64,000 nucleotides of DNA from an uncultured Gammaproteobacteria bacterium (GTDB taxonomy: Bacteria > Patescibacteriota > Patescibacteriia > Magasanikbacterales > GWA2-37-8): the NCBI GenBank assembly GCA_964536725.1, contig CAZHYJ010000002.1, positions 27,219-91,218 of the forward strand, given 5' to 3'. The notes below the pieces were generated by a model, which made no database searches, was not told the DNA's origin, and was given only the letters and a program-made list of their open reading frames with translations. How positions within the stretch are numbered: position 1 is the stretch's first letter; each line of letters starts with the position of its first letter. Made by a program: the position numbers and the translations under genes. Positions 4,886-55,973 of the stretch are shown here, in pieces.

Positions 4886-6796
4886 ATGTCAAAAGTACTT
4901 GGAATCGATTTGGGAACAACTAACTCTTGTGTGGCGGTCATCGAAGGTGGCCAGCCAAAGGTGTTAGAAAACAAAGAGGGGGCACGCACCACGCCGTCCA
5001 TTGTGGCTGTGTCAAAATCCGGCGAACGTTTGGTGGGTCAACTGGCTAAACGTCAGGCGGTAACTAATCCGGAAAATACTTTGTATTCTATCAAGCGTCT
5101 TATCGGTCGCAGATTTGGCGATGCGGAAGTACAACGTGATTTGAAGTTGATGCCCTACAAAATTACCCAATCGGGTGATGCTGTAACAGTAGCGTTACAG
5201 GGCAAAGCACATTCTCCACAAGAAATTTCCGCAATGATCTTACAGAAATTAAAAGCGGATGCGGAAGAACGTTTAGGCGAAAAAATTACTGAGGCGGTTA
5301 TCACCGTACCAGCATATTTTGATGACTCACAACGTCAGGCTACTAAAGATGCCGGTGAAATTGCTGGTTTGAAAGTTTTGCGTATTATCAACGAACCAAC
5401 TGCTGCCGCTTTGGCCTATGGTTTTGATAAAAAAATTGAACAAAAAATTGCTGTCTATGACTTGGGTGGTGGTACCTTTGATATTTCCATTTTGGAAGTA
5501 GCCCCAGATAATGTACAGGTATTGTCTACCAATGGTGATACTCATTTGGGTGGTGATGATTTTGATCAGAAAATTATTCATTGGATTTTGGATGAATTCA
5601 AACGTGATCAGGGGATTGATTTAAGTAAAGATCCGTTGGCCCTACAACGTATTAAAGAAGCCGCTGAGAAAGCCAAGATCGAACTATCTACTTCTCAAGA
5701 AACAGAAATCAATCAGCCGTTTATCACTTCTGGTGCCGATGGACCAAAACATTTGGTAATAAAAATGACTCGTGCGAAAATGGAAGAACTGGTGGGTGAG
5801 TTGGTGGAAGCTACTTTTGTCCCAGTGCGCAAAGCGATGGAGGACGCTGGGTTGAAAACAGCTGATTTACACGAGGTAGTAATGGTTGGTGGTATGACTC
5901 GTATGCCATTGGTATTAAAGAAAGTAGAAGAATTTTTTGGCAAAAAGCCTAACATTAGTGTTAACCCAGATGAGGTTGTGGCCGTTGGCGTTGCTATTCA
6001 AGGTGGTGTGTTACACGGCGATGTTAAAGATGTATTGTTGTTGGATGTTACCCCACTTTCTCTTGGTATTGAAACCATGGGTAGTGTGATGACTAAATTA
6101 ATTGAGCGCAATACTACTATTCCAACTGCAAAGTCGCAAGTGTTTTCTACCGCCGCTGACAGTCAGCCTAGTGTAGAGATTCACGTGTTACAAGGTGAAC
6201 GTCCGATGGCGACCGACAACAAAACTCTTGGTCGGTTTATCTTGGATGGAATTCCACCTGCTCCCCGCGGTGTGCCACAGATTGAAGTAACTTTTGATAT
6301 TGACGCTAATGGTATCTTGAGTGTAAAAGCAAAAGACAAGGCTACCAGCAAAGAGCAATCGATTCGTATCGAGGCTTCCTCTGGTTTGTCGAAAGAAGAT
6401 ATTGAAAAGATGAAAAAAGATGCAGAGGCACATGCCACTGAGGATAAACAAAAACAAGAGTTGATTGAAGCACGCAATTTGGCGGATACCATGGTCTATA
6501 CCACTGAAAAGATGATGAAGGATGTTGAGGAAAAGAAAATTGATGTGACTGAAGAAGAAAAAAACAAGGTGAATGAAGCTCTTAAGGTTGTTAAGGAGGT
6601 AAAAGACAAAGACGATGTGGAAGCAATCAAAAAAGCGGGCGAGGAATTGTCTAAAGTCGCTCAAGCTGTCGGTATGAAGATGTACCAACAAGAGCAGGCG
6701 AGTAAGACTGAAAAGCCAGCCGACCAACCACCAACCGATCAGGGCGGAAACACCCCTCCAGAGCAAGGACCGATTGAGGGTGAAGTGGTGAAATAA
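4886..6796 (+). CDS. dnaK: Molecular chaperone DnaK (Hsp70).
   Basis: [13 protein letters not shown] and DLGGGTFD motifs, full length. Confidence 0.97.
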
Positions 6797-6841
6797 AAAA
6801 CAAATTGTGATAGAATGTAAGGGCCCCGTTTTGGGGCTCTT

Positions 6842-7108
6842 GTGAATAATTATATGAATCCAGAATCTGCGCGTGGAAATAATTTGGGATCCGCATCAGA
6901 TATTGAACTTGCCGCTTATTGGGCAGGGGAGTTGGAGCATCCTTGTGCTGACCCAAGCAATCCAGGGTGCACTATGCGTCTTGATTGGTTGCGTGAGGCG
7001 AAGGCGGTTTTAGCTGACATGGAGGCTAAGCCAGTTAGCGAACAAAATCCTTTTGCAGTTAAATTGTTGCAAGATGCTATTTCTAAATACGACCAATCAG
7101 AAAAGTAA
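6842..7108 (+). CDS. Hypothetical small protein (88 aa) inserted between dnaK and dnaJ.
   Basis: ORF with slightly elevated GC and a Cys-containing HPCADPSNPGC segment. No SD sequence. An imperfect hairpin (AAGGGCCCC-gtttt-GGGGCTCTT) precedes it. Confidence 0.35.
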   Translation: MNNYMNPESARGNNLGSASDIELAAYWAGELEHPCADPSNPGCTMRLDWLREAKAVLADMEAKPVSEQNPFAVKLLQDAISKYDQSEK

Positions 7109-7110
7109 CT

Positions 7111-8223
7111 ATGTCCAAAGATTATTACAAAATATTAGGTCTAGAAAAAAACGCTTCAGCAGATGAGGTTAAAAAAGCTTTTAAAAAGATGGCGATGGAA
7201 CATCATCCTGATCGACCGGGTGGAGATGAAAAGAAGTTTAAAGAGATCAACGAAGCTTTTCAAGTCCTAAGCAATCAAGAGAAGCGTCAAAAATATGACC
7301 AGTTCGGCTCTGACTTTGAACAGCAGGGTGGTTTTGGTGGTGGTGCGAATTGGGAAGATTTTATGCGCGCGGCTCGTGGCCAAGGTGGTCAGGGTGGATA
7401 TGGTGGTGCCAATTTTGATTTTGGCGGAGTTGATCTCGGTGATATCTTTGGTGATCTTTTTGGTGGTGGCGGACGCGGTCGTGGCCAACGTCAACAGGCA
7501 CGTGGTCGCGACATTCAGGTTGATGTAGAGATGGATCTCAAAGAGGCAGTATATGGAGTGGAGCGTGAAATATCTTTACGTAAACAGTCAACCTGTGATG
7601 TCTGCAACGGCTCTGGCGGCGAGCCAGGCAGTAAAATGGACACTTGCGCCACTTGTCAGGGGCAAGGCCAGGTGGTGCAACACCAGCGGACGTTTTTGGG
7701 TACTATGCAAACAGTGGTTGCCTGTCCAGATTGCCAAGGGCGAGGACAAAAGACAAGTAAAAAATGTAAACACTGCGGTGGCGATGGAATCTTGTCCAAA
7801 CAAACAACAGTTAAAGTAAAAATACCAGCTGGTATTGATAACGGCGAATCAATTCGCTTAACGGGTTATGGTGAAGCTGCGCCACATGGTGGGGTTAGTG
7901 GCGACCTGTATGTTCGGGCTCATGTTCGTTCGCACAAAGGGCTGCAACGTGAGGGTTTCGATATTTATTCAGAAAAAGAAATCAGTTTTGTACAAGCAGT
8001 ATTGGGAGATAAAGTGGAAGTAGAAACTGTTGATGGGGTAGTAAATTTAATGATTCCAGAAGGTGTCGAATCTGGTCAGTTGATTAAAATTAAAGGTAAG
8101 GGTGTGACGCATTTGGGTCGTAGCACTCGTGGTGACCAACTGGTAAAAGTAAAAATTCGCGTACCAAGAAAACTGAGTCGCGATGCCAAGAAGAAACTGG
8201 AAGATCTGAGAGGGGAGTTGTAG
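7111..8223 (+). CDS. dnaJ: Chaperone DnaJ.
   Basis: J-domain with HPD, G/F-rich region, and four CxxCxGxG zinc-finger repeats. Confidence 0.95.
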   Translation: MSKDYYKILGLEKNASADEVKKAFKKMAMEHHPDRPGGDEKKFKEINEAFQVLSNQEKRQKYDQFGSDFEQQGGFGGGANWEDFMRAARGQGGQGGYGGANFDFGGVDLGDIFGDLFGGGGRGRGQRQQARGRDIQVDVEMDLKEAVYGVEREISLRKQSTCDVCNGSGGEPGSKMDTCATCQGQGQVVQHQRTFLGTMQTVVACPDCQGRGQKTSKKCKHCGGDGILSKQTTVKVKIPAGIDNGESIRLTGYGEAAPHGGVSGDLYVRAHVRSHKGLQREGFDIYSEKEISFVQAVLGDKVEVETVDGVVNLMIPEGVESGQLIKIKGKGVTHLGRSTRGDQLVKVKIRVPRKLSRDAKKKLEDLRGEL

Positions 8224-15872: not shown

Positions 15873-17495
15873 ATGCAGACAAAATATATCTTTGTTTTGG
15901 GAGGGGTGTTGTCAGGAGTGGGTAAGGGGGTAACGAGCGCGTCAGTTGGTCGCATGTTTAAAAACCGTGGTTACAATGTGTCGGCGATTAAAATTGATCC
16001 ATATATCAATGTGGATGCGGGCACAATGAATCCAGTAGAGCATGGCGAAGTATTTGTGACTGACGACGGTGACGAGACCGACCAGGACATTGGTAACTAT
16101 GAAAGATTTTTGAATACTGATATTTTGTCTTTGAACTACATGACAACTGGTCGTATCTATCAGACTGTGATTGAAAAGGAGCGAAGTATGTATTACAAAG
16201 GTAAGTGTGTACAAGTGGTACCACATATCCCACTGGAAATTATTAGTCGGATTAAAAAGGCTGCTGAACATGCAAAGTGTGACATAATGATTGTGGAAGT
16301 TGGTGGTACGGTGGGGGAATATGAAAACATTCTGTTCTTGGAGGCGGCGCGCATGATGAAGTTGGACAATCCGGATGATGTAGCTTTTGTCTTGGTAAGT
16401 TACATGCCAGTTCCAGGACATTTAGGTGAGATGAAAACCAAGCCTACTCAACACGCCGCTCGGGCTTTGAATAACTGCGGTATCCAACCGGATTTCATTG
16501 TGGCGCGTGGAAAAGAAGCGTTAGACAAACCGCGTCGAGAAAAACTTGCTTTCTTCTGTTGGTTGCGTTCAGAAGATGATGTGATTTCCGCACCAGATAT
16601 CGATAGCATCTATGATTTGCCCAATGTTTTTGAAAAACAAAATTTTGCAGCACAGATAGCGAAGAAATTGCATTTTAAATCTAAACCGAAGGTAGATAAC
16701 GCTTGGGACAAATATGCTAACAAGATTAAAACTGTTGGTCGGGTGGTAAAGGTGGCGGTGGTAGGAAAATATTTCGGTACAGGAAAATATACGTTGGCGG
16801 ATTCATATATTTCGGTGATTGAAGCGGTTAAACATGCGGCCGCTAATAGTAGTGTGGTTGTTGAGTTGACTTGGATTGATGCGGAGGAATATGAAAGTAA
16901 CGCCACCAAGGTAAAAGAATTAAAAGACTTTAACGCGATCATCGTCCCTGGTGGTTTTGGTGGTCGGGGAGTGGAGGGGATTATTACCGCAATTCGTTTT
17001 GCACGGGAAAACAAAATTCCGTATTTAGGTTTGTGCTATGGCATGCAATTGGCAACCATCGAATTTGCACGTAATGTTTTGGGGTTAAAGGACGCGAATA
17101 CTGAGGAGATTAATCCGAAGAGTGAAAACCTGATAATCCGTACATCACCTAATCAGGTAGAGAACGTCAAAAACAATCGCTATGGTGGCACAATGCGTTT
17201 GGGGGCGTATAACTGTGATTTGAGAAAGGGTTCCAAAGCCCAAGCAGCTTATCGTGCCGACCAGATCAGCGAACGCCATCGCCATCGCTATGAGTTTAAC
17301 AACGAATACATTAAACCGATGGAAGAAAAAGGGTTGCTGGTGTCAGGAATGAATCCAGAGAGAAATTTGGTGGAGATAATAGAATTGGAAGATCATCCAT
17401 ATTTTATCGGCTCACAGTTTCATCCAGAATTTAAATCTCGTCCGCTCAGTCCGCACCCATTGTTTGTGGGGTTGATAAAGGCGGCGTTGAAATAA
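15873..17495 (+). CDS. pyrG: CTP synthase.
   Basis: N-terminal KYIFVLGGVLSGVGKGVTSAS, C-terminal GATase domain (GLCYGMQ), full length. Confidence 0.95.
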   Translation: MQTKYIFVLGGVLSGVGKGVTSASVGRMFKNRGYNVSAIKIDPYINVDAGTMNPVEHGEVFVTDDGDETDQDIGNYERFLNTDILSLNYMTTGRIYQTVIEKERSMYYKGKCVQVVPHIPLEIISRIKKAAEHAKCDIMIVEVGGTVGEYENILFLEAARMMKLDNPDDVAFVLVSYMPVPGHLGEMKTKPTQHAARALNNCGIQPDFIVARGKEALDKPRREKLAFFCWLRSEDDVISAPDIDSIYDLPNVFEKQNFAAQIAKKLHFKSKPKVDNAWDKYANKIKTVGRVVKVAVVGKYFGTGKYTLADSYISVIEAVKHAAANSSVVVELTWIDAEEYESNATKVKELKDFNAIIVPGGFGGRGVEGIITAIRFARENKIPYLGLCYGMQLATIEFARNVLGLKDANTEEINPKSENLIIRTSPNQVENVKNNRYGGTMRLGAYNCDLRKGSKAQAAYRADQISERHRHRYEFNNEYIKPMEEKGLLVSGMNPERNLVEIIELEDHPYFIGSQFHPEFKSRPLSPHPLFVGLIKAALK

Positions 17496-35720: not shown

Positions 35721-35816
35721 TTTTTAAGCTTTTAAAAATTTAGTTGAAGGGTCGATTGTTCATGTCGACCAAGCGCGCTCATCAAAAACCTGATGAGTTG
35801 GTTTTGGTTGCTGGGT

Positions 35817-36194
35817 CTAGCAGCTGCGCTTCTCCGTGCGCAACTCCTCTGCTGGCAAGATCCAGAAAAGTACCTGGGTGACCATCAGGATGGTGGAAAC
35901 GATGTTGACCGTCTCTTCGGTGAACCATCCCGTGTACCGAAGCAGCAGAACCAGAATCGAGCAGAGGATGCAGTGGATGAAGCAGATCTTCGCGAAGAGC
36001 TTGAGATGGTCTGCTTTGTAGAAGATCCACCGGAACTCGTTGGTCGGACCGACCTCCATCCATCCGCCAGTCTTGAGGCACTTCCGCACACTCAGAAAGT
36101 GTACGATGAAGGCTAAGAAGCCCACAATCATCCCCTTGACCACCCAGTCGATGTTGCCGAAAAAGTCCAACATACGCCCCTCCCTCCCAACCAT
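35817..36194 (-). CDS. GC-rich foreign-looking small 3-TM membrane protein (125 aa).
   Basis: About 57% GC against about 38% background. Three predicted TM helices. Upstream AT-rich spacer with a terminator. Confidence 0.45.
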   Translation of the reverse strand: MVGREGRMLDFFGNIDWVVKGMIVGFLAFIVHFLSVRKCLKTGGWMEVGPTNEFRWIFYKADHLKLFAKICFIHCILCSILVLLLRYTGWFTEETVNIVSTILMVTQVLFWILPAEELRTEKRSC

Positions 36195-36441
36195 TTTTTA
36201 GTTGAACAACCGTTTTTCTTATATCGTATTTCAACAAAAATGTCAATGTGCTGTATTGTTTTTTTGGTGATGGTTTGAAAAAACAAAATCCGACTTTAGT
36301 AAGTCGGATTTTTGTATGTTATTCTGTCCGTGCTGCCGCAGAATTCAAATTTTAAATTCTATGGCAGGCACACGGACAGAAGGTTTTTCACTTCTTTGTC
36401 GTGCACCCGAAGTGGCGGGTGTGAGGGGTAGTGGGGGGGGG

Positions 36442-36846
36442 CTATCGCTTGTCCGGCACCTCGATGGGCACCAGGGGGTAGTGCCGGTACCCTTCCGGCG
36501 TCCAATCCAGTGCTCCAAGCGAGAATGACGTCCCTTCAGCTGGAACCTCTCGGAGTATTCCACCTCCGAAGGGGTCCAGCTTCGTGGCCTTCTGAACAGA
36601 CTGGACGTTCACTTTGAACGTCCACCCCGCGCCATTGCGCTTGGTGCGCATGACGCGCTCGTCCAGGCCGACGACCTTCCATGTGTCGCCGCTTCTCGCC
36701 TTGGCGAAGCGGAGGTCCTGGAAGTCGATGGTAAAGGGCGGATACCTCCTGGACAGCCACCTCCCAACGATGTTTCCGACCACGCACATGACCAAGAAAG
36801 ACACCCAGGCCCAAACACCTTCCAACATCGCAAAACTCCTCTGCAA
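36442..36846 (-). CDS. GC-rich foreign-looking membrane-anchored protein (134 aa).
   Basis: GGAGG SD 8 nt upstream. N-terminal TM VWAWVSFLVMCVVGNIVG. Codon usage unlike the surrounding genes. Confidence 0.45.
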   Translation of the reverse strand: MQRSFAMLEGVWAWVSFLVMCVVGNIVGRWLSRRYPPFTIDFQDLRFAKARSGDTWKVVGLDERVMRTKRNGAGWTFKVNVQSVQKATKLDPFGGGILREVPAEGTSFSLGALDWTPEGYRHYPLVPIEVPDKR

Positions 36847-37107
36847 CGGTTTTCTTCATCGGCGCACGTTACGCCAACAAATACTCACCGACCACGGGCT
36901 TGGGGAAAATCGTATTCCCGGCCTCGTTTTTGTTTTCTGTTTAAGAAGTCAAAAATGAGGCTAGGAAAACGTAATGTAAAGAACAAATTAACGTTTAAGT
37001 ATAGTACAAAAAAGCGGTTTTGTCAATGTACTTTTGCACTTTTTCTGCATCCCCACTTTTTCCCTTGTTTTAGCCATTTTTTCTGTGGATAACTATGGTA
37101 AAAAATG

Positions 37108-46904: not shown

Positions 46905-46945
46905 AATTTTCAAAATCATCCGCCAACAAGTGGGTGATTTTTTGT
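46905..46945 (+). terminator. Terminator after rplU, AATCATCCGCC-aacaa-GTGGGTGATTTTTT.
   Basis: Hairpin plus T-run. Confidence 0.55.
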
Positions 46946-47014
46946 TTTAAAATATTGTTTTTGGGTTGGTGGGGTGGTATAATAAAAGCCAGCTTAAGAC
47001 ATAAGATTTCATAT

Positions 47015-48568
47015 ATGAATAGCGAGAGAGGGCACTCTTTCTTGCCGGTAGAAAAAATTAAAAAGGAGTCTGTGGGTGATCGTTTTAATGGGGCAGTGGT
47101 AAAAGAGATGGAAAAAAAATTTGATGCTACCCATGATGTAACTGGTGATTATTTTACCCATGCTTTTCCTTTTGATAATTTGGCGAGTATTGTAAATGTA
47201 GGTGGGTTGGTTACACCAAATGAATTAAGGAGGAGAAAGGTTGGTTTTAAGAGGGGGAGCGATGCTTCTTTCGGGTCAACGATATTCTTTTCTAAAAATG
47301 AAATTCAGGGTTACAGTATTTCACAGATGGGAGATAAAAAAGATAAGGTTATTTCTGCTGCGATTCTCGTTCCAACACAAGAGTTTCATAGGGTAAGTAG
47401 AACAAGAAATGATTTGGTTGGATCGCATGTGTTTAAAGAAGGCGACTATCGAGACCCAAATGCGAGGTCTGTTTCTAATGAATTTCCTTTATATACAGAA
47501 CATGCATATATGGTTAGTGATCGAGCAGTTCGTGCAGCTGAAGAAATATCACAAAAATTACTAAAACAAAAAATTGACAGAAGTAAGAATCTGTTAGATA
47601 AAATAATCGCACAAGCAGAGGCAGATTTTAAGGATGGAGTTGAAAGTTTGTCTGCCATCTCTGTGAACGAACGAGACAGTGTCATGAAGGAACTGGGTAG
47701 AGGTTATCATTTTGACGAAAACCCTTTTGTTTATTCGGTAGAACGAGGGATAAAAGAATTAGAAAATTTGATTCAAACAAAAGAAAAAGCTTTTAAAGAT
47801 TTAGAAATTGACTGTGGTTTTCAAAAAGAGACTATTCGGTTTTTTTTAGATCAAAAAAAGCCGAGTTTCTTACAAAATGTTGTTGAAAATTTGGGGTTTA
47901 AAACTAGGCGTCAATCAGATGTGGTAGGATTAGAAAAACAAGCGAAGGAGCAAGATGGAATTTTAGTTTCTGCCCAGGAAGAAATTGCCAAATTGAGAGA
48001 GCAGTTGTTAGAAAGTAAACAAAGGTATGAGCAGTTAAAGGTTGCTTACAAATTATTGATGGAAAAAAGAAGGGCGATAGGTGTAGCTCAACGTGCTTAT
48101 GATAATAGCGTCAATGAGTTTAAAAAATATTATAGGACAGAACCGGAGTATGATATGTTCGGTATAAACGCACTTGGTGAAGGTTTTTTAAAGGTGCTAA
48201 GTCAAATGAGAAAAGCTTATGGGGTTCCAGAGCTTGAAAGGGTAGCTAAAGTAAATATTGATCATTCTATAATATTAGTTGAAATTGAAGGGGCAGAGGA
48301 TGCTGTAAAAGCAACAGAAAATAAACCGGGTTTACGTTCTAGAATTATTTTATTTGATGGAAAAAAACTCTCAAAAGAAATAGAGGATAGAGTTTCGAAG
48401 GATGACCACAGTTTAGGAGATAGTGTGGATGTTTTAAATATATTAACCAAAACAGAGGATGGCTTTGCAATATTAAAAGCAGCACAGTCTGGGTCAGTAG
48501 GAGGCCAAAAGTTAAATGGCCTTATTTCGTTAGCAGATTATTTAGTTGATCAAAAAAAATTTAATTAA
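47015..48568 (+). CDS. Large hypothetical protein (518 aa) with an N-terminal globular region and a central coiled coil.
   Basis: Long ORF with its own TATAAT promoter. No motif recognised. Start set at the internal ATG (the track ORF begins at 46934). Confidence 0.5.
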   Translation: MNSERGHSFLPVEKIKKESVGDRFNGAVVKEMEKKFDATHDVTGDYFTHAFPFDNLASIVNVGGLVTPNELRRRKVGFKRGSDASFGSTIFFSKNEIQGYSISQMGDKKDKVISAAILVPTQEFHRVSRTRNDLVGSHVFKEGDYRDPNARSVSNEFPLYTEHAYMVSDRAVRAAEEISQKLLKQKIDRSKNLLDKIIAQAEADFKDGVESLSAISVNERDSVMKELGRGYHFDENPFVYSVERGIKELENLIQTKEKAFKDLEIDCGFQKETIRFFLDQKKPSFLQNVVENLGFKTRRQSDVVGLEKQAKEQDGILVSAQEEIAKLREQLLESKQRYEQLKVAYKLLMEKRRAIGVAQRAYDNSVNEFKKYYRTEPEYDMFGINALGEGFLKVLSQMRKAYGVPELERVAKVNIDHSIILVEIEGAEDAVKATENKPGLRSRIILFDGKKLSKEIEDRVSKDDHSLGDSVDVLNILTKTEDGFAILKAAQSGSVGGQKLNGLISLADYLVDQKKFN

Positions 48569-48981: not shown

Positions 48982-49554
48982 ATGAAGAGCTTGATTAAGA
49001 AGAAAATATTATTAGCCGGTAACGAAGTCGAATACCTATTACAAAAAAGTATTCGGGCTGGGCGCATGCGTCTGTCGGTTGGATTCGGAGCGGTTGTTAC
49101 TGTGACAATTCCGTGGTATTTCAGTGAACGTAAAGTTGAGATGTTTTTGCGCGACAAGGCGGGGTGGATTTTAAAGAAGATGGCGCATTTTAAAAAGATT
49201 GGTAACGTAGTTAGAATTGGTGGAGGAAGAAAAGACTATTTAAAACACAAAGAACAGGCGAGACAGTTGGTGTTGCGAACGATTGAAGATATAAACAAAG
49301 ACGGACAGTTTGTGTTTAATCGCATTGCCATCCGAAACAACAAGTCGCGTTGGGGTAGTTGCTCAAAAAAAGGAAATTTAAATTTTAATTATCGGATTAT
49401 TTTTCTACCTGAACATTTGGTAAAGTATCTAGTGGTGCATGAACTGTCTCACTTAAAAGAATTTAATCATTCACATCGTTTCTGGAATTTGGTGGGGGAG
49501 TATGTGCCGGATTACAAAAAAGTAACGAAAGAATTGAAGAAAAATATATTTTAA
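48982..49554 (+). CDS. YgjP-like metal-dependent hydrolase (DUF45/M48 family, HExxH).
   Basis: RWGSCSKKGNLNFNYRIIFLPEHLVKYLVVHELSHL. Confidence 0.75.
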   Translation: MKSLIKKKILLAGNEVEYLLQKSIRAGRMRLSVGFGAVVTVTIPWYFSERKVEMFLRDKAGWILKKMAHFKKIGNVVRIGGGRKDYLKHKEQARQLVLRTIEDINKDGQFVFNRIAIRNNKSRWGSCSKKGNLNFNYRIIFLPEHLVKYLVVHELSHLKEFNHSHRFWNLVGEYVPDYKKVTKELKKNIF

Positions 49555-49573
49555 TATTTAATAGTGTAAATAT

Positions 49574-49873
49574 ATGAAAGGTTTTTTAAATTTTATTCGT
49601 GAACAAGGAGTGGTTGGACTGGCAGTCGGTTTTTTATTAGGCGGAGCAGTATCTCGAACAGTGACTTCTCTGGTGGACAATGTAATTAATCCATTAGTCG
49701 GTTTGTTACTGGGCAAGGTAAGTTTGGTAGATCGAGCTGTTGTTTTTGGTAATGCTTCTTTAAAGTATGGTGCATTCATTTCTTCGATCATTGATTTTGT
49801 TATTATCGCTGCAGTTATCTACTTTGGTATCAAATTGATAGGGATAGATCGGTTGGATAAAAAGAAGGAATAA
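49574..49873 (+). CDS. mscL: Large-conductance mechanosensitive channel MscL.
   Basis: FIREQGVVGLAVGFLLGGAV TM1, TM2, and a charged C-terminus. Confidence 0.85.
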   Translation: MKGFLNFIREQGVVGLAVGFLLGGAVSRTVTSLVDNVINPLVGLLLGKVSLVDRAVVFGNASLKYGAFISSIIDFVIIAAVIYFGIKLIGIDRLDKKKE

Positions 49874-49921
49874 TTTTTTAAATTATTTTAAAATCACTCA
49901 ATTTGTTTGGGTGATTTTTTG

Positions 49922-49950
49922 TTGACAGATAATATGTGATGTGGTGTAAT
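49922..49950 (+). promoter_or_regulatory. Promoter TTGACA-17-TGTAAT in front of the GC-rich ORF.
   Basis: Read from the sequence. Confidence 0.4.
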
Positions 49951-49982
49951 ATTTCAGGCTTCTTTCTTCGAGGAGGGAGAAA

Positions 49983-50243
49983 GTGTCTAGTAAAAAGTCT
50001 CCGTTGAGGCTGGAGCTGGAGGAGAGCCTTACCTTAGAAAAGTTGAAGTTCGTGTTCGAAGAGGGTAGGGGTGTATTCCTTCATGACTGGGAAGGGCTGA
50101 TCAAGAGCCATCCTCGCAAGAGGGGCGTGGTCGCGAGGTATCTCGCGACGGTCGTTGGCAGTCATGTCCAGATGCCCGTCGAGGTGACGGGTTGGACTAG
50201 TGCCGGCGAAGGACGATATCAGCTGCACTACAAGCTGATCTGA
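49983..50243 (+). CDS. GC-rich foreign-looking small protein (86 aa), GTG start.
   Basis: Strong SD GAGGAGGGAGAAA, about 55% GC. Followed by the hairpin CCCCCGAA...TTCGGGGG. Confidence 0.45.
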   Translation: MSSKKSPLRLELEESLTLEKLKFVFEEGRGVFLHDWEGLIKSHPRKRGVVARYLATVVGSHVQMPVEVTGWTSAGEGRYQLHYKLI

Positions 50244-50349
50244 AGGAGGGTGGCGAGTTGGAAACTCGCAATTACCCCCGAACGCGCGAACCTGCTCTTC
50301 GGGGGTTCGCTTTATATAAACCCAAGAGACGATAAAACAACAATTTTAA

Positions 50350-50385
50350 AACCGCCCCAGTTGGAGCGGTTTTGTTTTTTTACTG
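50350..50385. terminator. Bidirectional terminator, AAACCGC-cccagttgga-GCGGTTT.
   Basis: Hairpin flanked by A-run and T-run, downstream of recR (minus strand). Confidence 0.5.
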
Positions 50386-50976
50386 ATGTCGATGCTTCAA
50401 TGCGTTCCCCAGCGTAATCTCATCCGCATACTGAATATCACTCCCCGTCGGCAACCCACGTGCTAAACGTGTTGTTTTTATCTTAGGAAATTTTTCTTTT
50501 ATCTCCTTTTCCAAATACATCATGGTAGTCTCTCCCGCCATATCAGGATTAAGCGCTAAAATCACTTCTTGTATTTCCGTACTTTTTAATCTTTCCAGTA
50601 ATTCCGATATTTTTAGATTACCAATCTGGTCTAGGTCAGTTGCGTCAATCGTCCCGCGTAAAATATGGTAAGTGCCTTTGTATTCACCGGTACTTTCTAA
50701 TACAGGTACGGCCTGTGGATCGGACACCACGCAAATAATATTTTTCATTCGAGTTTTATCTTGGCAAATTGGACAAGGATTGGTGTCGGAGAAATTCCAA
50801 CAGGTTTCGCAACTTTTTACTTTAGCTAGAAGTTCTTCCAGTGAGTTCACCGTCTCCATCACTTCTTTTTTACCGGAGTTTAACCAATAAAAAACAAACC
50901 TTTCCGCGGTGTGTTGACCAACGGAAGGAAGTCTTTTCAAGACGGCAATCAATTTGTCAATTGAAGGCGAGTACAT
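50380..50976 (-). CDS. recR: Recombination protein RecR.
   Basis: C4 zinc finger (CETCWNFSDTNPCPIC) and Toprim domain. Confidence 0.9.
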   Translation of the reverse strand: MYSPSIDKLIAVLKRLPSVGQHTAERFVFYWLNSGKKEVMETVNSLEELLAKVKSCETCWNFSDTNPCPICQDKTRMKNIICVVSDPQAVPVLESTGEYKGTYHILRGTIDATDLDQIGNLKISELLERLKSTEIQEVILALNPDMAGETTMMYLEKEIKEKFPKIKTTRLARGLPTGSDIQYADEITLGNALKHRHQ

Positions 50977-52808: not shown

Positions 52809-52925
52809 AGTTTTGTTTGCCCGTATATGTTAACTCAAAGAGGGTGTTTTAAGCAAGGCGGGGGTGGGGGTGAATTGTGATTAAAATGTGTGTATATAAA
52901 GTTGTAGCCGCGACGGGTATCGCGG

Positions 52926-53738
52926 CTACTTGTTTCCACGGGACTTGAAACGGGGGGTGATGTCGCTGATTAAGCGTCTGATGAGGTCGGCGGCAATGGG
53001 GAGGATCGGGGTGTGGTGCTTTTCGGTCGTTTGGTGCTTCGCCTTTTTTTCCGCGTACGATTTCCAGGAAAGCGGAATCGAAGCGAGGAAGGTGAACACA
53101 CCGACAGTGCCGATCACGCTGGTAGGCTCGTTGATGGAGCACATCATCAGCATGATTCCAGCGGACTGCAAGATCATCTTGATCTTCCCGGAGAGGGTAG
53201 ATGCAAGTGCTCGTGTGTCTGGGTGGTTTTGCACCACCTCGTAGGCGAAGTCGGCCAGGCGAATCTTCGTCAGCTTGACCTCCAGATAGGCGAAGCCGAA
53301 GAAATCTGTCGCAAGGACGACCCAGTACCACCACTCGACGGGGATGCTGTCTGCTACCACAAGGGCAATGATCACGACGGCGAGGCTGAATTGCGAGAGC
53401 AGTGTCAGAATCTGCGCTTTGTCAGCCAGCGGGTCTGAGACCTTGCCCAGTGCGGTGCAGTTCCGTCGGTAGCGTGCCAGCGCTCCGTCCAGAGCGTCTA
53501 GCAGCAGGGTGAACAAGAGTGCCACCACTCCGAGCCAGATCAGCACGTTGCTGTTGAGCACTGCCCCCAGAAGAAACAGCACGAAGACAAAAGGCGTCAT
53601 CGGCAGCACTCTGAAGACAGTGATCATGTTCGGCGTAATCCACACTGGAATGATCTTGCAGATCGGTTCCAGCAAGCGGTCGAAAATCCCAGCCGGGAAT
53701 TCCGATGTGCCGTTGTAAACGGCATTTTTCAAGTCCAT
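52926..53738 (-). CDS. CDP-alcohol phosphatidyltransferase family protein (PgsA-like phospholipid headgroup transferase). GC-rich and foreign-looking.
   Basis: Perfect DALDGALARYRRNCTALGKVSDPLAD = D-G-x2-A-R-x8-G-x3-D-x3-D signature. GGAGGG SD. CTG/GGC-biased codon usage. Confidence 0.75.
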   Translation of the reverse strand: MDLKNAVYNGTSEFPAGIFDRLLEPICKIIPVWITPNMITVFRVLPMTPFVFVLFLLGAVLNSNVLIWLGVVALLFTLLLDALDGALARYRRNCTALGKVSDPLADKAQILTLLSQFSLAVVIIALVVADSIPVEWWYWVVLATDFFGFAYLEVKLTKIRLADFAYEVVQNHPDTRALASTLSGKIKMILQSAGIMLMMCSINEPTSVIGTVGVFTFLASIPLSWKSYAEKKAKHQTTEKHHTPILPIAADLIRRLISDITPRFKSRGNK

Positions 53739-53816
53739 GGTTTTCCCTCCAATCAACTGATGGGAATAGTACAGGCGCTTTGCCTTTTTTGTCAACATTG
53801 AGTATAATCTATATGT

Positions 53817-55973
53817 ATGAATCAATGGAAACAATTGCTTAAACCGGTAGTTTTTTTGTTAGTGTTTTCGATTTTAATATTTCTTTCTTGGTCAAAATAT
53901 TTACCACAATTTTTTGGTATCTTTTTTGGGTTAATATTATTCTTCCGTATTGCCTCCTGGTGGCGTCATTCTCTCGGAGAAATGTTTGATATTCCACTGC
54001 GTTCTTTCCGGGCTTGGGTTTTCTCTGTCTTTTGGACGTTAGTTAATATCGGCACGTTTGCTGGAGTTGCCCTGTTCTTTGGTCGGTTGGATGCGTTGAC
54101 TGGTTCACTCGGTCTATTCTTTAGTGGTCTAGTGGCGGTAATATTTAAAAAATATAATTTCACTCGTGAGTCACGAACTATTGAAGTAGATGTTAAGGAA
54201 GAACGACCGTTAGACAAAATTTTAGTTTTGGTTTATTTGGTGCTGTTTTTTATCGGTCTTAATATTTTGGTGCACGCCAAAACCGGTTTGGTTGTCTCAA
54301 CACCATGGCAAGTGATTCCGGAAAATTATTTAATAATATATTTTCTTGCCACCGCCGCACTTCTACGTATTCTTTTTTCTGAATTGTCTGCCAAAGCAAC
54401 TTTGGTGTTGATTGTTTTTCATACTTTTTTAACTGTCTCGTATTTAGCCTTTACTCATGAATTGTTTTATGGCGCTGACATCTGGCGTCATCTGGCAACC
54501 GAAAATGCCATTATTCAAAGTGGTGGCTGGCGTGATGCGGTGGTGACGGGTGTACAATCGGTATTTGATTTTGGTAAATTATCTTACGCCCAGTTTTTGT
54601 CACTCGGCGTTGTTCTCAATCAAGTATTTGGTTTGGATCTTATTTTCATCAACAAATGGTTACAACCAATACTGTGGGCGTTTGTATTTCCAGCTTTGAT
54701 GTTTTCTTTTGCTCGTGAAATGGGGGCAGACAAAAGAGGGGGATTGCTCGCCGCGATTTTTGGTCTTTTGCCTTTTGCTTTACAGGCGTCTGGGTCTTTT
54801 GCTCTGCCGGTAAATTTTGGCTTTTTGGTGTGGTTGTTTTTGGTTTGGTTGTTGTTAAAATTCATGCACGAGCGCTTGAAAATTCAGGCAATATTTTTAA
54901 TTACTTTTGGTGCGTTATTAATTTTTAGTTACTCTTTGTATTTTGTCCTTTTTTGGCTTTTGTGGTTTGTGTTAGAGATTGCACGAGCAACGGGTGAGTG
55001 GTCACGTTGGAAAAAAATATTAACGAGTCTTGGTTTGTTCTTGATTGTTGCCGTTTCTATACCAGCTATAGAGTTGATATTTAATTTTGGTCATTTGCCT
55101 CGAACTTGGGATTTGCTATCAGGATTAAAACAATTTTTTGGCAACTTGTCCGGTTGGTATTTGGCTTTTGGTCCACGGTCGCATGATATTGCTACCGGTA
55201 ATATTCTATTTAATCAAACACCGGCAATGGCCTTTGTTCCCAATTTTCTAACTGTCGATCGCTATTGGTTAATCGCCGCTGCATTAGTTTTTTGGCTTTC
55301 CAGTTTGTTTGGTTTGATAAACGGTTTAAGGAAAAAAGATTTTCGTCTCAACGGTTTGGCTCTACTGATCGTCGGTTTGTTCTTTGGATATTTTTTCAGT
55401 CGTTATCTAATGGTGGGCGACAATATTTTAGCACGTCGTTTAGAGGTGGTATTAGCATGTCTGTCGGTATTTTTCGGTGCCCGATTTTGGATGGGGGTGT
55501 TTCTTAAAAAGCAAGAATTTTTTGCGCGCTTCCGCTATGTGGGTTTGATAATGGTGGTGATATTTAGTGCGGGTGCAATTACGGCTTCATATTCACTCGG
55601 ACCAGATACCAAGACTGTGAGTAGTGACGAATATCAGGCAGCGCAATATATTTGGCAACAAGTTTCGTCGGATAACAAATTTTGTGTTTTAGGTGATACT
55701 TATCCGCTCCTAGCGCTAGAAGCAGAGTCAGCCAAGAAAGTAGTGGGCGGCGGTTTTCCAATTGACACCAACTTTGGTCAGCCAGAGCGGGTGCAATTGT
55801 TTAAAGATTTAACAAATCGGTCGGTAGAAAATGTTTTGACTGACGCAAAGATATTGATAGACACAAAGAGCTGCTGGTTGGTATTTTCAGGTGATAACGG
55901 GAAAGTTAATTTGCGTTATGATAAAAAGAATATTCAAAAAGTTTTTGGTGATGTAATAATATTTAAAAATTAA
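53817..55973 (+). CDS. Large polytopic membrane protein (718 aa), possibly a GT-C-type glycosyltransferase.
   Basis: More than 14 predicted TMs and loop regions. No motif confidently recognised. Confidence 0.4.
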   Translation: MNQWKQLLKPVVFLLVFSILIFLSWSKYLPQFFGIFFGLILFFRIASWWRHSLGEMFDIPLRSFRAWVFSVFWTLVNIGTFAGVALFFGRLDALTGSLGLFFSGLVAVIFKKYNFTRESRTIEVDVKEERPLDKILVLVYLVLFFIGLNILVHAKTGLVVSTPWQVIPENYLIIYFLATAALLRILFSELSAKATLVLIVFHTFLTVSYLAFTHELFYGADIWRHLATENAIIQSGGWRDAVVTGVQSVFDFGKLSYAQFLSLGVVLNQVFGLDLIFINKWLQPILWAFVFPALMFSFAREMGADKRGGLLAAIFGLLPFALQASGSFALPVNFGFLVWLFLVWLLLKFMHERLKIQAIFLITFGALLIFSYSLYFVLFWLLWFVLEIARATGEWSRWKKILTSLGLFLIVAVSIPAIELIFNFGHLPRTWDLLSGLKQFFGNLSGWYLAFGPRSHDIATGNILFNQTPAMAFVPNFLTVDRYWLIAAALVFWLSSLFGLINGLRKKDFRLNGLALLIVGLFFGYFFSRYLMVGDNILARRLEVVLACLSVFFGARFWMGVFLKKQEFFARFRYVGLIMVVIFSAGAITASYSLGPDTKTVSSDEYQAAQYIWQQVSSDNKFCVLGDTYPLLALEAESAKKVVGGGFPIDTNFGQPERVQLFKDLTNRSVENVLTDAKILIDTKSCWLVFSGDNGKVNLRYDKKNIQKVFGDVIIFKN

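Follow-up and report, generated by a model that had tools for sequence, protein, structure and literature searches.

The 506 nt that separate the stop codons of mscL and recR in the 64-kb stretch of DNA analyzed here (the window) hold a segment that was inserted between these two genes, is foreign in composition, occupies an insertion hotspot and bears coding-like signals. We explain this segment, with moderate confidence, as a horizontally acquired and self-contained gene cassette of ~420 bp lodged in the mscL/recR terminator hotspot. It is a strain-specific acquisition of an ordinary kind in a Magasanikbacteria (CPR) clade. In the sequence of events that we propose, a foreign GC-rich cassette would have entered the bidirectional terminator at which the core genes mscL and recR converge, bringing with it a promoter-like element, a canonical Shine-Dalgarno (SD) site, an 86-codon open reading frame that starts with GTG (ORF86) and two GC-rich 3'UTR hairpins, with read-out into the terminator shared with recR. 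Its transcript would be a monocistronic mRNA and the translation product a small, basic and soluble α/β protein. Our best guess is an accessory protein that is specific to the strain and derives from a mobile element or a phage-like source, e.g., a small nucleic-acid-binding or conflict-related protein carried in the manner of a phage moron. An earlier note on this DNA had singled out the segment as a GC-rich island; its observation holds up, and so does part of its interpretation.

Insertion at the mscL–recR junction

The interval is laid out as follows, in window coordinates, with L119 to L124 denoting contigs of relatives:

49574–49873 (+): mscL, the conserved upstream flank (Pfam MscL, 8.3e-22); orthologues 84–92% identical in L119–L124
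49874–49921 (+): T1, the left copy of the ancestral bidirectional terminator, which ends mscL (inverted repeat I2)
49922–50335 (+): the inserted segment, ~415–420 nt, missing at empty sites
49922–49950 (+): sigma-70-like promoter candidate TTGACA-17-TGTAAT, read from the sequence, inside the insert
49970–49979 (+): Shine-Dalgarno site GAGGAGGGAG, with a GGAGG core 6 nt upstream of the GTG codon
49983–50243 (+): ORF86, GTG start, 86 aa (ORF list)
50253–50269 (+): 3'UTR hairpin GCGAGTT-gga-AACTCGC (MFE fold of the 3'UTR and direct reading)
50274–50306 (+): GC-rich hairpin ACCCCCGAA-15 nt-TTCGGGGGT (inverted repeat I8)
50336–50382 (no strand): T2, the right copy of the ancestral bidirectional terminator (inverted repeat I3)
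50380–50976 (−): recR, the conserved convergent downstream flank (Pfam RecR domains); orthologues 90–91% identical in L119–L122

The earlier note had described the GTG-started 86-aa frame, the strong SD site ahead of it and mscL as the upstream gene, and each of these is present as described, with the translation of the frame in the sequence and the ORF list exactly as quoted.

Contigs of relatives were retrieved via their MscL homologues, and five states of the mscL|recR junction were recovered, with RecR 90–91% and MscL 84–92% identical. In L120 and L121, whose MscL and RecR are 92% and 91% identical to those of the window, the junction is empty: only 38 nt lie between the mscL stop and the recR stop, and they carry one bidirectional terminator hairpin. 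L122 is likewise empty, with a gap of 36 nt. The sister genome GCA_964535515.1 (L119) holds 3.1 kb at this junction, much of it with ~55% GC, and in it four genes, two of which encode a radical SAM enzyme and an ICMT/PEMT methyltransferase. In L123 an IS200/IS605 Y1 transposase directly follows the same terminator. As one and the same junction is found empty, with ORF86, with four genes and with an IS, it is a hotspot of insertion, and ORF86 is part of an insert. We regard this comparison of relatives as the decisive evidence for insertion. The nearest recR-anchored loci come from Magasanikbacteria or Patescibacteria MAGs throughout.

The insert is bracketed by two diverged copies of the ~40-nt target terminator, whether by target duplication or otherwise. 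T1, with the hairpin AAAATCACTCAA/TTGGGTGATTTT at 49890–49918 followed by a T-run, aligns to the single terminator of L120 with a score of 19 (shuffles 6.4 ± 2.0), and T2 does so with a score of 16.5 (shuffles 4.2 ± 1.9); two orthologous empty sites aligned to each other score 17, about as well as T1 and T2. A search of the insert for a mobility gene or an att site found none that was recognizable, and the 9-nt repeat TCTTCGRGG (D3) was discarded as a target-site duplication, being at chance level. An IS200/IS605 element or a miniature derivative of one was also considered for the insert and rejected, as there is no Y1 transposase or TnpB ORF in it and no blastn similarity to L123. The L123 element itself (1470–2050) is of the IS200/IS605 type, with a 144-aa Y1 transposase and the GC-rich subterminal hairpins ccccgcccgtaagggcgggg and ccacggccgtaaggccgtgg.

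These boundaries also bear on the signals that were read from the segment. The promoter candidate noted earlier is present, its hexamers being TTGACA at 49922–49927 and, after a 17-nt spacer, TGTAAT at 49945–49950. It had been called native, but it lies within the insert, between the terminator copies, and is missing at the empty sites; it is therefore not native. At position 2 of its −10 hexamer, which is normally invariant and canonically A, it has G, and for this reason a consensus scan made no promoter call. Similarly, the GC-rich hairpin proposed as a terminator does exist, with a 9-bp stem (arms at 50274–50282 and 50298–50306) and a 15-nt loop, but owing to that long loop and a weak T-run it is not a canonical intrinsic terminator. 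A better terminator is the hairpin of T2, AAAACCGCCCCA/TGGAGCGGTTTT at 50348–50373 followed by a T7 run, which is common to both genes and serves ORF86 on the plus strand and recR on the minus strand. The 3'UTR (50241–50310) has two mutually exclusive folds: one contains the hairpin of the earlier note, CCCCCGAA/TTCGGGGG, and the alternative, of minimum free energy, pairs GGAGGGU with ACCCCC and GCGAACC with GGUUCGC. A 5'UTR stem, CUUUCUUC/GGAGAAAG, would leave the SD site and the start codon only partly exposed.

The mscL–ORF86–recR junction, with both flanks, occurs in three independent assemblies, and the samples SRR16642447, SRR11845626 and SRR11845635 contain the element. ORF86 is intact in four copies, and the copies are identical over 49853–50320. 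Compared with the window, the strain contigs L001 and L003 show patches of 6–7% divergence in mscL (49521–49852) and at the 3' end of recR (50401–50601). Each ends at an edge of the island, and ~1 kb of recR and ybaB shows no divergence either. The patches are likely recombination tracts from relatives that do not have the insert, in a mosaic bounded by it.

Foreign composition, Shine-Dalgarno sites and the other islands

Whereas the window has a mean GC content of 41.1% (340-nt windows: mean 0.411, sd 0.045), the stretch at 49970–50309 reaches 0.562, i.e., +3.4 sd relative to the 340-nt windows of the 64 kb, in agreement with the ~55% GC of the island as first described. GC this high is found in just 1% of 340-nt windows, which are confined to three places:

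~36300–36960: island 1
49966–50311: island 2
~52900–53750: island 3

A milder GC bump at 6600–7800 was rejected as an island; it corresponds to DnaK/DnaJ.

The excess extends to codon usage and dinucleotides. ORF86 has a GC3 of 0.68, against 0.29–0.49 in native genes. The log-likelihood ratio of its codons under an island model, built from the genes of islands 1 and 3, relative to a native model is +0.42 bits per codon, a value that falls within the range of the other island genes (+0.28 to +0.68) and outside that of native genes (−0.45 to −0.89). By the composition-normalized dinucleotide signature, ORF86 is nearer to islands 1 and 3 than to native DNA, with a difference of +61 (controls: native segments −47 ± 47, island segments +57 ± 54). 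The shared signature of the three islands that the earlier note had proposed is thus upheld by both comparisons. Its claim of foreign origin is likewise sustained by the empty orthologous junctions, by codon usage, by the dinucleotide signature and by the SD sites.

The SD sites provide the clearest difference between the islands and their surroundings, one that was not in the earlier note. In the window, L119 and L122 alike, the leaders of native genes are AT-rich and lack SD sites, and at best a weak AGGA precedes 2 of the 32 called native genes. In contrast, a canonical SD site stands 5–9 nt before the start of every GC3-rich island gene, in the window as in L119. The GC3-rich, SD-led loci are:

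window 35744–36934
window 49970–50310
window 52842–53727
L119 1–1270
L119 10948–13351
L119 16113–16760

A literature search on SD usage or horizontal gene transfer in Patescibacteria or Magasanikbacteria returned nothing relevant. The contrast could serve as a simple mark of foreign genes in such genomes, and it raises the question of whether an organism without native SD sites can translate SD-led imports.

All three island sites of the window are GC-rich in L119 as well. At sites 1 and 2 the cargo shows no homology between the two genomes, and at site 3 its identity is only 30%; in L122, sites 2 and 3 are without cargo. Lineage-specific GC-rich cargo at fixed sites supports repeated acquisition at a few hotspots, as the earlier note had suggested. 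Among the other cargo at the island sites are a CDP-alcohol phosphatidyltransferase, an ICMT/PEMT methyltransferase and a radical SAM enzyme; much of this cargo has to do with membranes or lipids.

Island 1 (35744–36934) lies upstream of mraZ and consists of two GC3-rich orphan ORFs on the minus strand. The one at 35817–36194 is membrane-like and likely starts at 36173; the one at 36442–36846 has an N-terminal transmembrane helix and likely starts at 36828; neither has a family match. At the site of island 1, L119 (1–1270) carries unrelated GC-rich genes with GC3 up to 0.87. The island 3 gene, a CDP-alcohol phosphatidyltransferase (Pfam, 5e-19) at 52926–53834 on the minus strand, lies between dnaB and a gene for 718 aa. 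Its SD site suggests that the true start is the ATG at 53738 (270 aa) rather than the TTG at 53834. In L119, a GC-rich enzyme of the same family occupies the same position (16113–16760) and is 30% identical, with flanking genes at 77–96%, and the slot in L122 (8158–8369) has no gene. On these sequences, island 3 looks like a xenologous replacement at a fixed slot.

The earlier note had also proposed a single high-GC donor, plausibly a host lineage; the search for a donor found none. Neither ORF86 nor the insert has a protein or DNA homologue in the collections searched: DNA similarity was absent from plasmids, phages and IMG/VR contigs, and from recR- and ygjP-anchored loci of genomes and metagenomes. 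Island 3 was tried as a route to the donor and abandoned, the best relatives of its protein being 31–45% identical and encoded on low-GC, SD-less, CPR-like contigs of native composition. Viral scans were negative for the island 1 and island 3 proteins, and the radical SAM protein of L119 gave only remote matches (30–34% identity). We give a slim chance to a more far-reaching reading, i.e., systematic gene capture in this CPR clade, by which a partner of higher GC, possibly the episymbiont's host, would be the source of small SD-led GC-rich cassettes that repeatedly enter a few terminator hairpins and duplicate them, in a genome whose native genes start translation without SD sites; ORF86 would then be a functional small protein with a new fold and act in host–symbiont or phage–symbiont interaction.

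The empty donor search also enters into a very unlikely alternative, in which ORF86 would be a native gene, fast-evolving or arisen de novo, and would owe its GC-richness to some local process, e.g., GC-biased gene conversion at a recombination hotspot. In keeping with such a process, the island 3 enzyme has its nearest relatives in low-GC, CPR-like genomes, 6–7% divergent recombination tracts adjoin the island, and the sister genome, too, is GC-rich at these sites. However, the segment is missing at the empty sites and has sharp edges at the duplicated terminators, and the sister genomes have no homology between their cargo at sites 1 and 2. Furthermore, canonical SD sites are found only on GC-rich genes, and mutational bias would not make them.

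Coding signals of the 86-codon frame

We consider that the insert is probably a protein-coding cassette, a view that draws on several signals. GC at the three codon positions of ORF86 is 0.575, 0.39 and 0.68, and the phase periodicity is significant (p = 0.0014, i.e., reached in 0.14% of shuffles); the order GC3 > GC1 > GC2 is that of the genes in the other two islands. The protein would have a mass of 9.8 kDa and a pI of 9.4 and is predicted to be soluble. Single-sequence AlphaFold2 (AF2) models it with a pLDDT of 70.7 and a pTM of 0.58, whereas the antisense translation, used as a control, gives no fold (pLDDT 43.9, pTM 0.16). In the predicted structure, a disordered N-terminus is followed by a compact β-β-α-α-β-β fold. 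Pfam matched none of the other reading frames as fragments of known genes.

The main rival to the protein-coding cassette, which we hold to be less likely, is that the insert is inert foreign DNA—e.g., a fragment of a donor genome or a decayed mobile element—in which ORF86 is fortuitous and has no functional product. GC-rich DNA is poor in stop codons: frames of at least 86 codons arise in 6.5% of dinucleotide shuffles of the island, so that length by itself does not set ORF86 apart from chance, and on the opposite strand a frame of more than 100 codons stays open. When trained on the other island genes, a codon model fails to separate the sense frame from its shadow, scoring the antisense frame at 0.20 and the sense frame at 0.08 bits per codon, a reversal that also occurs in 9.5% of 85-codon windows of real island genes. 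In addition, ORF86 has no homologue in the collections searched, and the insert has no SNPs among its copies from which selection (dN/dS) could be read. Against this stand the phase periodicity, a well-spaced SD site exactly at the first start codon, as in all other island genes (the antisense ORF has none), a compact AF2 fold for the sense frame only and a frame that is intact in all four copies. Even if the insert is inert now, these signals point to a real gene in the donor.

A structured non-coding RNA, whose stems would account for the high GC and in which the ORF would be incidental, is in our view highly improbable. The segment folds strongly (MFE z-scores: −5.4 at 49950–50385, −4.25 in the ORF body), comes with a promoter-like element and a terminator, and lacks protein homologues. 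However, a coding control, nucleotides 1–300 of recR, folds with z = −4.5, and the folding z-score therefore does not discriminate. Rfam gave no match at all in the whole window at the gathering score and, at E ≤ 10, for which 49850–50450 was scanned, only terminator-like chance matches that all lie outside the ORF body; ARAGORN returned nothing for this segment, and the whole window contains no tRNA genes. The element is also missing from all close relatives, hence it is no conserved housekeeping RNA. The three-base periodicity, the SD site and the AF2 contrast favor coding.

The protein-coding cassette is thus the reading that we retain, although its predicted product has no known relatives in the collections searched. 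The homology search that the earlier note had called for was run and yielded zero homologues in 5.8 billion clustered or 1.84 billion representative proteins. Three short Logan contigs that have the flanks of the window carry ORF86 itself. The one other match, from phmmer against the 1.84 billion representatives, is a 2878-aa invasin-like protein (P0002), with which ORF86 shares the motif YxAxxVGS...GWT. This match (E 7.7e-20) was set aside as a repeat artefact: a motif of 22–24 aa recurs 13 times in it at ~29 bits each, and the summed E-value is strong because of that repetition. An assignment of ORF86 to the bacterial Ig-like (Big_1/invasin) domains was likewise dismissed, as Pfam has no match and the AF2 model is helical over part of the motif. 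ORF86 has no significant match in Pfam, NCBIfam, PHROG, PADLOC or the sequences of the PDB, and Foldseek found nothing significant in the PDB or BFVD. The best BFVD matches, to small uncharacterized phage proteins (E 0.16, TM ~0.5), are a weak lead.

Resemblance to known systems

Integration hotspots and flexible genomic islets between core genes carry strain-specific ORFans. The mscL|recR junction resembles them in its conserved flanks, in being empty or holding ORF86, four genes or an IS according to lineage, and in cargo that is atypical in composition and includes ORFans. Unlike them, it has received a very small insert with a single 86-codon gene and no associated integrase, tRNA or att site. 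Here, moreover, the insertion lies in a bidirectional terminator hairpin that has ended up duplicated, and the recipient is a CPR organism without native SD sites whereas the cargo carries them.

The cassette may also be compared with the phage morons, which, reportedly in the work of Hendrix and colleagues, are genes with their own promoter and terminator that sit between resident genes and differ from them in base composition. Our segment has a promoter-like element, one small gene, hairpin terminators, a position between unrelated genes and a clear GC discontinuity. Its flanks, however, are the chromosomal housekeeping genes mscL and recR rather than genes of a prophage, and no phage homologue was found for it, the sole phage link being the weak fold resemblance already mentioned.

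A third comparison is with the GC-rich intergenic structured RNAs of AT-rich genomes, the class that is sought by ncRNA discovery based on GC content and intergenic regions. The segment shares with them a GC-rich intergenic position in an AT-rich genome and a strongly negative folding z-score. Unlike them, it has no Rfam match and is not conserved in relatives, and its periodicity, its SD site with a start codon and its foldable predicted protein point to an mRNA.

Taken alone, ORF86 is one more strain-specific ORFan. Its value lies in being a clean and well-bounded example of gene gain by a very reduced CPR genome, in which the empty, filled and differently filled alleles of one junction can all be compared. 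The more interesting by-products are the dichotomy between SD-led and SD-less genes and the three hotspots with lineage-specific GC-rich cargo. Organisms of this kind are thought to rely on their hosts for lipids, a dependence to which the membrane- and lipid-related cargo is relevant. Outside the three islands, the 544-aa ORF that lies upstream of tspO (46934–48568) differs much among relatives: its counterpart in L122 has 45% identity, and in L119 an unrelated gene for 187 aa stands in its place; its site may be another variable slot.
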